From: Escherichia phage fjerdesal
Sequence record: MN850605.1
DNA length: 64,000 bases
Strand: one strand, 5' to 3'
A model generated the notes under the pieces. The model saw only the letters and a list, made by a program, of their open reading frames with translations. It was not told the DNA's origin and did no database searches. Position numbers and translations under genes: made by a program. The number at the start of each line of letters is the position of its first letter. The first letter of the stretch is position 1. This document shows positions 14,154 to 27,983 of the stretch, one piece after another.

Positions 14154-14163
14154 ATTAAATTAT

Positions 14164-14297
14164 CTTTGTAGATAAGCTACCCAGACTTGCTTAAGGTCTG
14201 TAGCGATGTGCCTTTTTTGGGTTTAAATCTAGAATTTACCCATTCACCCTTTGTGGTCGCATACTCACAAGTAAGCTTAATAACTTATCTACAAAGG
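14164..14297. repeat. 13-bp perfect inverted repeat (ctttgtagataag / cttatctacaaag) separated by about 108 bp
   Basis: Exact reverse-complement arms at 14164-14176 and 14285-14297. Confidence 0.5.
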
Positions 14298-14299
14298 TA

Positions 14300-14440
14300 A
14301 TTACCAGACCGTTGTTTATCATCTTAAGTGCTACCATTACACCAACTCGACATCTGCCGAGTGAAGGAATCGAACCTTCGCCTTTTCTTTACCGGAGAAA
14401 TAGATTGTTTAAGTTTTGCTGTAAACGGCCTTCTGTAAAT
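14300..14440 (-). ncRNA. candidate Y-RNA-like element containing a circularly permuted tRNA-like module
   Basis: Minus strand order: T-arm GAAGG/TTCGATT/CCTTC (14363-14379), closed acceptor-like hairpin ACTCGGC-AGAT-GTCGAGT (14345-14362), D-arm-like GTG/TAATGGTAG/CAC (14328-14343); flanked by AGGCCGTT / AACGGTCT complementary segments; no anticodon arm. Confidence 0.35.
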
Positions 14441-14586
14441 TTGTTGAGCCAGACCAAGTTTTAAATTTTCAAAATTAAATTGGCTTGAAAATATCATACG
14501 TTCTTGCTGAATTTGGTCTTCTGCTCCTTTAAAGAATACTCGTAAGAACTCTTTAAGGGAGGGGCTAAATAGCCCTCTCAAAATTG

Positions 14587-14839: not shown

Positions 14840-14917
14840 TTAATACATTGCCAGACCGTGTTTTTTCTTTTATCCGCAAAAAAGTATTTTGTTGCTGAAT
14901 ACGGTCTTCTGCAAAAT

Positions 14918-14994: not shown

Positions 14995-15085
14995 ATTCTT
15001 AATGACCAGACCAAATCTCTTCTTTGTCCGATTTACCTTCAGATGAATAAGATTAAGTTTGCTGTAATTGGTCTTCTGTCAAAAC

Positions 15086-15412: not shown

Positions 15413-16828
15413 TTACCAGATATAACGGTCAATCATTACTGCTTTGAGCATTACACTGATTGGGTCAAACTTCTCACCACCAAGCAGAGCTTTTAAAGTG
15501 GCTGGAGAGAACCCTGATACCATTGCTACACCGTTATCCTTAACAGATACTTCGCAAGTACCATTACGGTTTGCTAAGTACCAGAATACCAGTTGTGGCA
15601 TCTCATATCCAGCTTTTTTGTACTTACTCTGAATTGCTTCAAAGTTTGTACGACCGTTAGCTCCATCAACCTGATTGAACTCCATATCGGAGAAGATGAT
15701 AAGCTTACTTGGCATATCTTTCTGAGTCAAGTTGTTTCTTTTACCTGTTTCAAGAATGCGGTCAAAAGCTGCTTGTAAGTTAGTTGAGCCATATTCAACG
15801 TGTCGCATCACCTGACGATGACGGTTTCGTAAATCACCACTCAGTTCGATGAAGTGAGGGTTTGTTGAATAAACCATTAACTCATTCTTAAAGCAACCTG
15901 TATTGCGTTCTGCTACATACAAGGCAAGTGATACACCAATATCCAGAGCAGTAATGGAGCCAAAATTCACCCAAGACATTGAACTTGATACATCAGACAT
16001 ACACAAGATGTTTTCACCTTCTGCCATCCAGTTTGGTAGTGCTTTCCACTGCTCATTAGCAACATCTGCATTACCATACTTGACAGATTTAATCACATCG
16101 TATGGGTAAACAGCACCAGCGTTAATCTTAGTCTCACCTTTTGATAAGGACTCGATGTAAGCTTTGTAACGCTCTCCATCTTTACGGTTAAACAGTTTTT
16201 GGTAACGTGCAGCAGCAAGTGAAGGAATCTTACTGTAGTCAATCTTACCAAACTCATTAGCAGAGATTTTTTGCTCAACTGTATCAGATAGTGCAGACAA
16301 CAGTGTGCGGTACTCTTTCTCACTCAAGTTGGCAAACTTGCAGAAACGTTTTACAAACTGCTTATGACGTGGTTTGACTCGTGGTAACCACTTAGCCGCC
16401 AAACCTGCTGTTGCAGGGTCTAGTAATGCTGCTTCTAAATGTTTGAAGGCATCTGTCTCGAAACGAGTACCTACGAAGATTTTGAAGTCATCAAAACGAC
16501 CAAGTTCTGCAATCTTATCCATAATGCGAAGAACCTGCGTAGACTCTAAAACTTTGTCTTCAATTGCTTGAAGCAAAACAGTTCTGAAGGCTTTACGCTC
16601 ACCCATACCTTCTCGTACATCTCGCATATGAAGCAAAATACGAACTGCAACATCAACATCCTCACGCAAAGCTTTGTAGAACAGGTCTGGTAAGATTTCT
16701 ACGTTGCTACGGCTTGAACCAGCAGCTTTGTAAAAGTCTACAAGAGCAGACATTGATGAAGTATGGTTTACAGCACCATTTTCAGTTCGACCTGCATGAA
16801 GGTGCGCATGTTTAAATAATTCGCTCAT
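15413..16828 (-). CDS. vWA-domain protein, possibly Ro60/TROVE-like (Rsr-like)
   Basis: 471 aa; MIDAS motif DVSSS (CMSDVSSSMSW) and downstream beta-strand LIIFSDMEF typical of vWA; N-terminal ~280 aa helical region with loose resemblance to Ro60 motifs (LVDFYKAAGSS, YPYDVIKSVKYG); no adjacent AAA+ partner. Confidence 0.6.
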   Translation of the reverse strand: MSELFKHAHLHAGRTENGAVNHTSSMSALVDFYKAAGSSRSNVEILPDLFYKALREDVDVAVRILLHMRDVREGMGERKAFRTVLLQAIEDKVLESTQVLRIMDKIAELGRFDDFKIFVGTRFETDAFKHLEAALLDPATAGLAAKWLPRVKPRHKQFVKRFCKFANLSEKEYRTLLSALSDTVEQKISANEFGKIDYSKIPSLAAARYQKLFNRKDGERYKAYIESLSKGETKINAGAVYPYDVIKSVKYGNADVANEQWKALPNWMAEGENILCMSDVSSSMSWVNFGSITALDIGVSLALYVAERNTGCFKNELMVYSTNPHFIELSGDLRNRHRQVMRHVEYGSTNLQAAFDRILETGKRNNLTQKDMPSKLIIFSDMEFNQVDGANGRTNFEAIQSKYKKAGYEMPQLVFWYLANRNGTCEVSVKDNGVAMVSGFSPATLKALLGGEKFDPISVMLKAVMIDRYIW

Positions 16829-27478: not shown

Positions 27479-27983
27479 TGTCTTTTTCAATAGCTTTTAA
27501 AGTTTTTTCTAAGTTCTTGATATTGAAAGATAAACCCTCTCCCAATGTTTTGCTGTAACCACTAGGGCGCAAGTCATGCAGTTCGATTTCTTCCACTTCG
27601 AAGAGACTAACCAACTCACCGCTTACACTGTAAGCCATTGAAACAGTATTTACAGGGGCTTTATAGAACTTGTTTAAGGACTTGATAGAACGCTCATAAG
27701 CCATTTTATAACCGTTTAAAAGGTCTTTAACGTGGTTGCGAACGTTTTTACACTCATCTAAGTAAATCCCTAAGAATAGCGGTAATAACTCTGCTACAGC
27801 TTGCATAAAGTGAGAGACTACAACGGTTGCAACATTACGACGATGTACATAATAAGCCCCATTTTCTGATTTAGTGATGGTTGCAAAGTGTACCCCATTG
27901 CAGCGAAATTCGTAGGTATCTTTAACAGGCTTAGCCATTACAGCATTTGAACGAATGTAGTTGATAGCTTGAAATTTGTTCAT
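27453..27983 (-). CDS. hypothetical early protein
   Basis: Track ORF 27453..28028 trimmed to ATG positioned by conserved cassette SD. Confidence 0.5.
   Translation of the reverse strand: MNKFQAINYIRSNAVMAKPVKDTYEFRCNGVHFATITKSENGAYYVHRRNVATVVVSHFMQAVAELLPLFLGIYLDECKNVRNHVKDLLNGYKMAYERSIKSLNKFYKAPVNTVSMAYSVSGELVSLFEVEEIELHDLRPSGYSKTLGEGLSFNIKNLEKTLKAIEKDIDETIKNL

Follow-up and report, generated by a model that had tools for sequence, protein, structure and literature searches.

The spacer between the tRNA-Asp and tRNA-Lys genes of Escherichia phage fjerdesal raises a simple question: what does a phage encode in 431 nt of a dense tRNA array where no tRNA is called by either ARAGORN or Rfam? 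We addressed this question in a 64-kb window of the phage genome (MN850605.1), to which all coordinates refer unless another locus is named; the array surrounding the spacer comprises 26 minus-strand tRNA genes. An initial annotation, made from the sequence alone, had seen in the spacer a circularly permuted tRNA-like module and had compared it to YrlA, a bacterial Y RNA. We find there a complete 138-nt unit, here called M2, that consists of a terminal "handle" and a tRNA-like "cargo," and we directly observe its anatomy, its covariation, its paralogy within the array, and its recurrent linkage to a family of Ro-like genes. M2 is probably, though by no means certainly, a stable non-decoding RNA of ~138 nt built on the Y-RNA principle, in which a protein-binding handle would be joined to an effector-binding cargo.

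Anatomy of a permuted tRNA-like unit

M2 is matched over its full length by covariance model (CM) R1 (14436-14300, 138 bits), and all of its helices are reproduced in the minimum-free-energy (MFE) fold (Table 1). A handle laid out as AAG-stem-UUACAGCAA...stem-CUG encloses an anticodon-stem-like helix, within which a V hairpin, a T-arm, a closed acceptor-like hairpin (AS), U8-G9, and a D-arm follow one another. The T-arm, closed hairpin, and D-arm that the initial annotation had placed in this order on the minus strand were located as exact motifs, and the flanking segments that it expected to pair into a longer stem do so in the inner helix of the handle (AGGCCGU with ACGGUCU). Its statement that no anticodon arm is present has to be withdrawn, given the hairpin of 5 bp and 7 nt that lies just upstream of the T-arm and is aligned as an anticodon arm by Rfam. 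The Rfam tRNA model as a whole aligns the anticodon arm, variable loop, and T-arm of M2 with 22 bits, which is below threshold. ARAGORN finds nothing in the native sequence, whether introns are allowed or transfer-messenger RNA mode is used; when the pieces are re-joined in tRNA order, it calls a complete cloverleaf, tRNA-Thr(GGU), and the anatomy of M2 is therefore formally that of a circularly permuted tRNA. The single-stranded motif that follows the 5′ strand of the handle is identical to the core of the 11-nt motif of Dictyostelium Class I RNAs, and the ...CU-G ending of the handle is common to these RNAs and to the units of other phages described below.

The handle of M2 is not alone in the array. 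Three further units, alpha, beta, and M1 (67 to 79 nt), occupy tRNA spacers and carry the same bulged-helix handle, followed by (U/A)U-(A/U)CAGCAA and a short AU-rich interior. The outer helix of the handle covaries among the four paralogues (UGAC/GUCA, UUGC/GCAA, AGC/GCU in M1, and UUAC/GUAA in M2), and alpha is retained in all three Ounavirinae genera as well as in the deletion phages discussed below. Open reading frames (ORFs) identified mechanically overlap M2 and its relatives (e.g., one of 85 aa at 14324-14581 on the minus strand); these ORFs and the short "hypothetical proteins" that GenBank records place over M2 are probably false gene calls on a structured RNA.

Conservation and covariation of M2

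The window belongs to Felixounavirus and is 99.8% identical to Escherichia phage dune across this region. M2 is kept in approximately 250 Ounavirinae records spanning Felixounavirus, Suspvirus, and Mooglevirus; in these genomes the locus is unannotated in GenBank, labeled "hypothetical protein," or (REP5 type) given as a 131-nt tRNA-Thr. The T-loop UUCGAUU, the D-loop AAUGGUA (with G18 and G19), and U8 are invariant in 23 Ounavirinae sequences, and the T-arm as a whole is essentially invariant within the Ounavirinae and covaries between lineages; the D-arm, too, is unchanged in the three genera. The AS has been fully rewritten among the genera with its pairing kept (ACUCGGC-AGAU-GUCGAGU, ACACGU-UACG-GCGUGU, and ACCCUUC-GCCAAACA-GAAGGGU). 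In Suspvirus and Sf13 it has 6 bp, a UACG (UNCG) tetraloop, and no discriminator base, and in several other phages it is closed by a GNRA tetraloop (GAAA or GUAA); closure by such tetraloops indicates that the sealed form of the acceptor is itself under selection. The V loop is variable, reading CCGGUAA here, a 6-nt CGGUAA in FelixO1, CUGGUAA in Suspvirus and Sf13, CUAUAAA in ESh22, and an unrelated sequence in Moogle. Because this "anticodon" loop is not conserved, we regard M2 as neither a decoding tRNA nor a pseudogene. The weakest helix is the anticodon-stem-like one (74% of cells paired); both of its strands are co-deleted in the Moogle group, and by inspection it has counterparts in the units of phages Lolly9, LeBron, FBKp34, and FADO.

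Covariation was tested in a structure-blind MAFFT alignment of 25 units from seven lineages, with slid partners and 500 shuffles as controls. Pairing occurs in 89.7% of cells, compared to 40 to 47% when partners are slid, and double changes are found at 26 of the 33 pairs, compared to 12 to 18 with slid partners, a level reached by none of the shuffles (0/500). These double changes are spread over the handle (6 of 7 pairs), the AS (7 of 7), the T-arm (3 of 5), and the D-arm (2 of 4), and compensatory changes maintain the helices in the three Ounavirinae genera and in six other phage lineages. The initial annotation had set against its own proposal the prospect that covariation in relatives would support an ordinary tRNA or a pseudogene, an outcome that was not obtained.

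A separate observation concerns the V hairpin. The CUGGUAA loop of Suspvirus and Sf13 is a perfect tRNA-Thr(GGU) anticodon loop, and "GGUA" recurs in the equivalent hairpin of FADO (L048 ~1505-1525). The V hairpin may mimic the anticodon arm of tRNA-Thr, yet its loop is not conserved in ESh22 or Moogle.

A neighboring gene with a predicted Ro60 fold

The nearest clue to function is a gene on the same strand as M2 and 975 nt upstream of it, which encodes a 471-aa protein of the DUF2828/DUF7788 family. Its DxSxS MIDAS motif is invariant. When an AlphaFold2 model of the protein (predicted local distance difference test score of 85, predicted template modeling score of 0.86) was searched with Foldseek against the PDB, the top 11 matches were all full-length Ro60/TROVE structures (E down to 1e-7, template modeling score up to 0.66), including those of Xenopus, human, Deinococcus (Rsr), and Thermus phage phiLo (2i91, 1yvp, 2nvo, 9kop, 9l5y). 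The protein is predicted to adopt the full-length Ro60 fold, that is, a ring of HEAT repeats and a vWA domain with a MIDAS, and it is the presumed partner of M2 RNA. The DUF2828/DUF7788 Ro-like family occurs in more than 700 phage genomes and is annotated as "Ro-like RNA binding protein" in mycobacteriophages. According to a 2024 preprint, the homologue in phage Bas63, gp130, resembles Ro60 and counters the ppl defense; as to its RNA, the preprint offers only the speculation that "some tRNA genes are possibly Y RNAs."

The gene neighborhoods of other family members provide some side observations. In Listeria phage List-36 (L047 3959-8021), the Ro-like gene lies near genes for an HD phosphohydrolase and a "tRNA splicing ligase" (RtcB-like), a neighborhood that echoes the bacterial rsr-yrlA-rtcBA arrangement. 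No RNA-repair genes adjoin the array in the window, where the neighbors are terminase, portal, and DUF proteins. In Klebsiella phage FBKp34 (L040 579-3658), the Ro-like gene and tRNA array are closely preceded by genes for a ribose-phosphate pyrophosphokinase and a nicotinamide phosphoribosyltransferase; these NAD (nicotinamide adenine dinucleotide) salvage genes may mark a counter-defense neighborhood.

Recurrence beside Ro-like genes in other phages

We scanned both strands of the window with a detector for the order T-arm, hairpin, D-arm and obtained one match; in 550 kb of other phage DNA, the same detector gave six matches on the strand of the Ro-like gene (the gene strand) and none on the opposite strand. 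A false positive of the "dimeric tRNA" type occurred in Bacillus phage FADO. Modules adjoin the Ro-like gene in FADO, in Klebsiella phage FBKp34, and in mycobacteriophages Lolly9 and LeBron, and M2-type units also lie beside the Ro-like gene at loci L083 and L126 and in IMG/VR phages. The common order of these units is stem 5′ strand, N-ACAGCAA, linker with or without V, T, AS, D, linker, and stem 3′ strand, with a length of 127 to 138 nt. Their terminal stems differ between phages and are complementary within each (AGGCCGU/ACGGUCU, AGAAGCU/AGCUUCU, GGACCCC/GGGGUCC, GGACUC/GAGUCC, and AGACACA/UGUGUCU). FADO has a V-like hairpin that Lolly9, LeBron, and FBKp34 lack, and the Lolly9 and LeBron units occupy an unannotated gap after the Ro-like gene, with no tRNA array there.

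Broader searches returned the same picture. CM R1 gave 43 matches at E < 0.1 in 689 kb, every one on the gene strand, including full-length units outside its training set (L073, L103, L097, and L091). For a census of handles in 60 distinct IMG/VR loci with a Ro-like gene, a unit was defined as a 7-bp stem, UU, ACAGCAA, an interior, the 7-bp stem, and G. Within 500 nt after the stop codon of the Ro-like gene, we counted 38 closed "stem + CAGCAA" units on the gene strand versus 2 on the opposite strand, and many handle units begin 22 to 28 nt past the stop. Their interiors are a short AU-rich loop, a tRNA-like domain, or another fold of 120 to 230 nt. The loose pattern NCAGCA[AT] alone has no strand bias (392 matches on the gene strand versus 404 on the opposite strand), and chance alone yields many 6-bp closing stems within 230 nt; information comes solely from the strict definition of a unit and from where it lies with respect to the gene. 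An exact scan of IMG/VR for the T...D signature recovered only Ounavirinae, and sequence alone therefore fails to reach the other lineages.

The same motif also occurs in another topology. In four lineages we found over-long "tRNAs" (111 to 121 nt) that have normal acceptor ends and an encoded CCA, match the full Rfam tRNA model, and are labeled tRNA-Ser, tRNA-Asp, or tRNA-OTHER in GenBank, with a hairpin and UUACAGCA within the anticodon loop. In place of the normal loop are ~40 to 48 nt in which one hairpin, U(U)ACAGCA(A), and another hairpin follow in turn. Of the five over-long "tRNAs," four are downstream of the Ro-like gene; that of L042 lies ~2.4 kb upstream of it. Judged from sequence, they are the unpermuted topology of the same module.

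Comparison with known Y RNAs

YrlA RNAs have the order stem, V, T, closed acceptor (AS), D, stem (Chen et al. 2014, PMC4201824), and M2 shares this order of modules between its terminal stem strands and is similar in size. Both RNAs have conserved T and D elements, an AS in which only the helix is conserved, and a V that is more variable; both lie <4 kb from a Ro60-fold gene on the same strand (at 975 nt in the case of M2, where the fold is a predicted one); and both occur in phages and are accompanied by a second type of RNA that is not tRNA-like (YrlB there; alpha, beta, and M1 here). They differ in that the YrlA motif GNCGAA(N0-1)G, which lies close to the 5′ end and is the putative site of Ro60 contact, is not conserved in M2, which has UUACAGCAA and AAG...CUG ends instead; in that the partner protein of M2 would be a DUF2828/DUF7788 protein and not TROVE by sequence; and in that M2 is embedded in a tRNA array, belongs to a set of four handle-bearing paralogues, and has no Rfam Y-RNA match. 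Across the window, GNCGAA motifs occur at the chance level (49 observed versus 52.7 expected). Recognition by Rfam covariance models for YrlA and Y RNA, to which the initial annotation had looked, failed: none of the models fires on M2 at the gathering threshold or at E ≤ 10, with the presence of a YrlA model in Rfam 15 unconfirmed. This negative carries little weight, because the modules of mycobacteriophages Lolly9 and LeBron are missed equally. The YrlA-like reading is supported by the Ro60-fold neighbor gene and by the recurrence of the same RNA design beside the gene family. Of the original comparison, then, the architecture and genomic context stand, while the GNCGAA motif does not and is replaced by UUACAGCAA.

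A Ro60 protein of Thermus phage phiLo binds phage Y-like RNAs and host polynucleotide phosphorylase (PNPase) (PMC12135203). This system resembles the M2 locus in pairing a phage Ro60-fold protein with adjacent phage Y-like RNAs (Yrl1 and Yrl2) and in the proposed subversion of host RNA metabolism or defense. Unlike M2, the phiLo Yrl RNAs carry CGAA and are not tRNA-like, and the phiLo protein is a recognizable Ro60 homologue.

A proposed mechanism and the evidence against it

Expression of M2 as a discrete RNA, its binding by the Ro-like protein, and the identity of the factor that it recruits are points that we infer from the comparisons above. M2 would probably be co-transcribed with the tRNA array and freed by excision of the tRNAs on either side; promoter-like sites precede both the Ro-like gene and the array (16897, 15394, and 15303), a terminator-like site lies past the last tRNA (10177), and no promoter-like site was found directly before M2. 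The bulged handle helix (an outer helix of 4 bp, an AGA/G loop, and an inner helix of 7 bp), together with UU-ACAGCAA, would dock the phage Ro60-fold protein. The cargo would be a tRNA look-alike, its anticodon-stem-like helix, V, T, sealed acceptor, and D elements folding into an L shape, and such a sealed mimic would be incapable of aminoacylation or decoding. By analogy to bacterial YrlA/Rsr/PNPase particles, the mimic could recruit a tRNA-recognizing factor to the Ro-like ring; candidates include an exoribonuclease such as PNPase, tRNA modification or processing enzymes, and a host tRNA-directed defense nuclease. Recruitment of this kind would fit the counter-defense phenotype of the homologous gene in phage Bas63. 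The siblings alpha, beta, and M1 would present the same handle with a short unstructured cargo.

Several observations weigh against this proposal. The linkage of M2 to the Ro-like gene is genomic only, and the IMG/VR loci are not phylogenetically independent, so that the positional statistics overstate the association to some unquantified extent. The 471-aa protein has no significant TROVE sequence match: its Pfam matches are DUF2828 and DUF7788 only, a phmmer search of the PDB with it returned nothing, and a profile search of the PDB reached Ro60 (1yvp) only at E = 0.38. The sole local match to GNCGAA(N)G (GGCGAAG, 14382-14376) extends into the T stem, and relatives have A or U in place of its C. 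As to the tRNA-like fold, Levitt position 48 varies (C/A/U) in the Ounavirinae, where A15 is invariant, and the folding energy of M2 is unremarkable (z = -0.95). Finally, phages ESCO45 (L012) and FG1m (L013) have lost the tRNA-like unit and keep the Ro-like gene, alpha, and beta, from which it follows that the cargo is dispensable, at least in the laboratory. The deletions in these two phages also remove several tRNAs, and their break points lie within repeated handle sequences, which suggests that they may have arisen by recombination between paralogous handles.

Alternative explanations

We considered four alternatives, all of which are less consistent with the data than a Y-RNA-like role for M2. 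First, M2 might act only in cis and have no Ro-like role, either as a signal for the processing, stability, or folding of the tRNA precursor, read by RNase P, RNase E, or tRNA enzymes, or as a 3′ untranslated region (3′-UTR) or autoregulatory element. In favor of this reading, M2 lies inside the tRNA array with no promoter of its own; the many IMG/VR handle units that start 22 to 28 nt past the Ro-like stop are 3′-UTR-like in position, and ESCO45 and FG1m survive without the tRNA-like unit. However, the unit is found with the Ro-like gene even where a tRNA array is lacking (Lolly9 and LeBron), and the four dispersed paralogues share a sequence-specific handle, not a generic hairpin. The same handle is borne by small RNAs that are abundant and free-standing in Dictyostelium, and a sealed acceptor is unfit as an ordinary RNase P/Z punctuation mark. 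We therefore consider a purely cis-acting role unlikely.

In phage families that differ widely, the units lie tightly and immediately beside the Ro-like gene on its strand, which speaks against the second alternative, in which M2 is a real small RNA with another direct partner (an RNA recognition motif [RRM] protein of the Rnp1A type, a tRNA-binding enzyme, or a host factor) and the Ro-like gene is a mere related neighbor. That adjacency is the genomic signature that identified genuine YrlA RNAs, and no RRM gene was seen adjoining the array in the window. In favor of another partner, the sole direct binder of Class I RNA shown in Dictyostelium is the RRM protein Rnp1A/CIBP, and the handle is without the Ro-binding motif of canonical Y RNAs. 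On balance, we find this reading rather improbable.

The third alternative takes the permuted anatomy at face value and makes M2 a functional tRNA-Thr(GGU) that is cut in the acceptor loop, provided with CCA, and re-joined or used in two pieces. ARAGORN does call the un-permuted sequence as tRNA-Thr(GGU), GenBank annotates a 131-nt "tRNA-Thr_GGT" here in REP5, and the loop in Suspvirus and Sf13 is the canonical CUGGUAA. Against a decoding role, the anticodon loop is not conserved (position 33 is C here, the loop has 6 nt in FelixO1 and reads CUAUAAA in ESh22, and that of Moogle is unrelated), the 6-bp acceptor with UACG in Suspvirus and Sf13 leaves no discriminator base, and homologous units in other phages are without any anticodon-like hairpin. 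The conserved parts are instead the handle and UUACAGCAA, both superfluous in a tRNA; the junction is no bulge-helix-bulge, the termini forming an ordinary bulged helix; and the native sequence gives no ARAGORN call even with introns allowed. A functional permuted tRNA is thus very improbable. Soma et al. reportedly described circularly permuted tRNA genes in Cyanidioschyzon merolae in 2007. M2 is like those genes in having the T-arm and acceptor 3′ strand upstream of the acceptor 5′ strand and D-arm, with a short linker; it differs in lacking a bulge-helix-bulge and a conserved anticodon, in having as its linker a 4-nt loop and not a removable spacer, and in that selection has acted on its handle and its sealed acceptor. 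We also tried and rejected the "intron-containing tRNA-Thr" of the REP5 annotation: by inspection, pairing is poor for the 5′ acceptor strand that this annotation proposes and complete, at 7 of 7 positions, for the downstream strand.

Lastly, a decaying remnant, such as a recombination scar made of one tRNA's 3′ half and the next one's 5′ half, might be looked for in a dense tandem array, where deletions occur in the region and "dimeric tRNA" arrangements yield false YrlA-like matches (as in FADO, and as Chen et al. warn for tandem arrays [PMC4201824]), but this reading is already contradicted by the covariation data and is scarcely credible, given that every helix is kept by compensatory substitutions in three genera and six further lineages, that length is constant at 127 to 138 nt, and that the two acceptor strands pair and covary, unlike unrelated tRNA halves.

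Resemblance to Dictyostelium Class I RNAs

When Rfam was searched permissively, the only family that aligned full length to handle units was the Dictyostelium Class I RNA (RF01414, Dicty_Class_I_RNA), with scores of 18 to 27 bits, all below its gathering score of 41.5 bits. The match to beta is full length (14852-14906; 26.7 bits, E = 0.001 to 0.007), the match to alpha scores 19.7 bits (15007-15073), and further matches fall in unrelated IMG/VR loci (Table 1). Class I RNAs are defined by an AAG start, a 6-bp terminal stem of variable sequence, an 11-nt motif, a variable interior, and a CUGU end (Kjellin 2021, PMC7919456). Their 11-nt motif lies beside the 5′ stem strand, has invariant U3, C6, C9, A10, and A11, and reads CCUUACAGCAA in D. 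discoideum. At this position M2 carries GU-UUACAGCAA, and many IMG/VR units carry the identical CCUUACAGCAA. The ends of M2 read ...GAAG/GCCGU and ACGGU/CUGG, where the slash marks the boundary, and those of other phages read AAAG...CUGA/U.

Phage handles and Class I RNAs are thus alike in beginning with (A)AG, in having a terminal stem of 6 to 7 bp whose sequence varies while pairing is kept, in carrying (C)CUUACAGCAA straight after the 5′ strand, and in having a variable interior and a CUG(U) end. Both occur in multiple clustered copies, some with large inserts (DdR-66 and DdR-67, 104 to 141 nt). M2 differs from Class I RNAs in its 138 nt with tRNA-like cargo, compared to 42 to 65 nt (67 to 79 nt for its siblings); in being phage encoded, with no DUSE promoter, a eukaryotic element not expected in a phage; and in that, in Dictyostelium, an RRM protein is what is known to bind Class I RNAs directly. 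A second covariance model, R2, was built solely from 21 D. discoideum sequences and gave 37 gene-strand versus 7 opposite-strand matches in phage loci (11 to 23 bits) and a score of 12.6 bits for alpha; 29 of the 37 gene-strand matches fall in the 11% of sequence that flanks the Ro-like gene (p about 5e-21). Outside the tRNA array, R2 also has a partial match in the window (27499-27558, minus strand; 11.5 bits, E = 6.7), which is probably noise.

Class I RNAs have been reported to be unique to Dictyostelia, where they are abundant free-standing small RNAs. A link between them and phage handles was not mentioned in the literature we searched, and a literature search for the handle motif returned primers only. 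It is possible, though somewhat doubtful, that phage handle RNAs and dictyostelid Class I RNAs form one family with the DUF2828/DUF7788 Ro60 fold as its cognate protein. If so, Class I RNAs would be the Y RNAs of a second, unrecognized Ro lineage of phages and eukaryotes, in which the handle docks the protein and an exchangeable interior (empty, a tRNA mimic, or some other fold) selects the effector. A candidate for the Dictyostelium partner would then be DDB_G0281243, the uncharacterized one among four proteins pulled down with DdR-21. This protein was not mentioned in the further literature that we searched, and a search with signature peptides in part of the Dictyostelium proteome found only an unrelated Ras/vWA protein.

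Features of the locus and other RNA structures in the array

The features described above are collected in Table 1. Two other sets of structures lie close to M2. Directly after it on the minus strand is a structured RNA, M3 (~14163-14297), with a long terminal stem (CUUUGUAGAUAAGUUAU/...CUUAUCUACAAAG) that shows compensatory changes in Suspvirus and Mooglevirus (GUAG/CUAC to GCAG/CUGC), and its interior is swapped between genera except for a conserved GAUUCUAGAUU. Just after tRNA-Asp on the same strand (~14505-14578) are two conserved hairpins, GAGAGGGC-UAUUUA-GCCCCUC and CCUUAAAGA...UCUUUAAAGG.

Table 1. Coordinates of M2, its parts, its paralogues, and related features (positions in the window unless a locus is named)
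Feature	Coordinates	Strand	Evidence
M2, complete tRNA-like unit, 138 nt (handle plus tRNA-like cargo)	14301..14438	-	CM R1, MFE fold, conservation
Handle 5′ side, outer helix UUAC	14438-14435	-	Covaries among four paralogous units
Handle 5′ side, internal loop AGA	14434-14432	-	
Handle 5′ side, inner helix AGGCCGU	14431-14425	-	Double changes at 6/7 pairs across lineages
Single-stranded motif UU-ACAGCAA, directly 3′ of handle 5′ strand	14416..14424	-	CAGC-A invariant in 25/25 aligned units
Anticodon-stem-like helix, 5′ strand CUUAA	14409..14413	-	Partner UUAAG at 14327-14323; in MFE fold
V hairpin UUUCU-CCGGUAA-AGAAA, 5 bp/7 nt, anticodon-arm-like, counterpart of YrlA V	14384..14400	-	Partial Rfam tRNA match
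T-arm GAAGG-UUCGAUU-CCUUC	14363..14379	-	
AS ACUCGGC-AGAU-GUCGAGU, closed acceptor-like hairpin, 7 bp including one G.U	14345..14362	-	Compensatory changes at 7/7 pairs
U8-G9	14344-14343	-	
D-arm GUGU-AAUGGUA-GCAC	14342-14328	-	
Anticodon-stem-like helix, 3′ strand UUAAG	14323..14327	-	Pairing, MFE fold
Handle 3′ side, inner helix ACGGUCU	14312-14306	-	Pairs with AGGCCGU 14431-14425
Handle 3′ side, bulged G	14305	-	
Handle 3′ side, outer helix GUAA	14304-14301	-	
M1, handle-only paralogue, AGC-AGA-AGACCAA-AU-UCAGCAA...UUGGUCU-G-GCU	14447..14525	-	
beta, handle-only paralogue, fills tRNA-Met/tRNA-Asn spacer	14848..14914	-	CM R1, 32.9 bits
alpha, handle-only paralogue, fills tRNA-Glu/tRNA-Met spacer	15003..15081	-	CM R1, 39.9 bits, E = 3e-4
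Gene for 471-aa protein with predicted Ro60 fold, DUF2828 and DUF7788, PHROG 850 "RNA-binding protein"	15413..16828	-	Pfam, PHROG, AlphaFold/Foldseek
Over-long "tRNAs"	L043 6895-7015, 7025-7137; L040 7003-7113; L049 7787-7905; L042 2494-2610		Rfam tRNA, 41-57 bits
RF01414 matches in unrelated IMG/VR loci	L076 5410-5467; L082 1535-1592; L090 2118-2175; L079 2931-2987		

Implications for the Ro/Y-RNA paradigm

That tRNA-like Y RNAs occur beside Ro60 genes, including in phages, is known already; what is new here is the recognition motif, the divergent Ro60-fold partner family, the paralogues in a tRNA array, the modular cargo, and the link to Class I RNAs. For FelixO1-like phages, M2 and its three siblings provide concrete candidate RNA partners for a Ro60-like counter-defense protein. 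More broadly, a sequence-divergent branch of the Ro60 fold appears to own a Y-RNA class with a different recognition motif and modular cargo, which widens the Ro/Y-RNA paradigm and supplies a simple search rule for such RNAs. The identity of the handle with that of Class I RNAs makes the binding partners and role of the amoeba RNAs directly testable, and this likeness makes it conceivable that genes have passed between amoebae and phages or bacteria.

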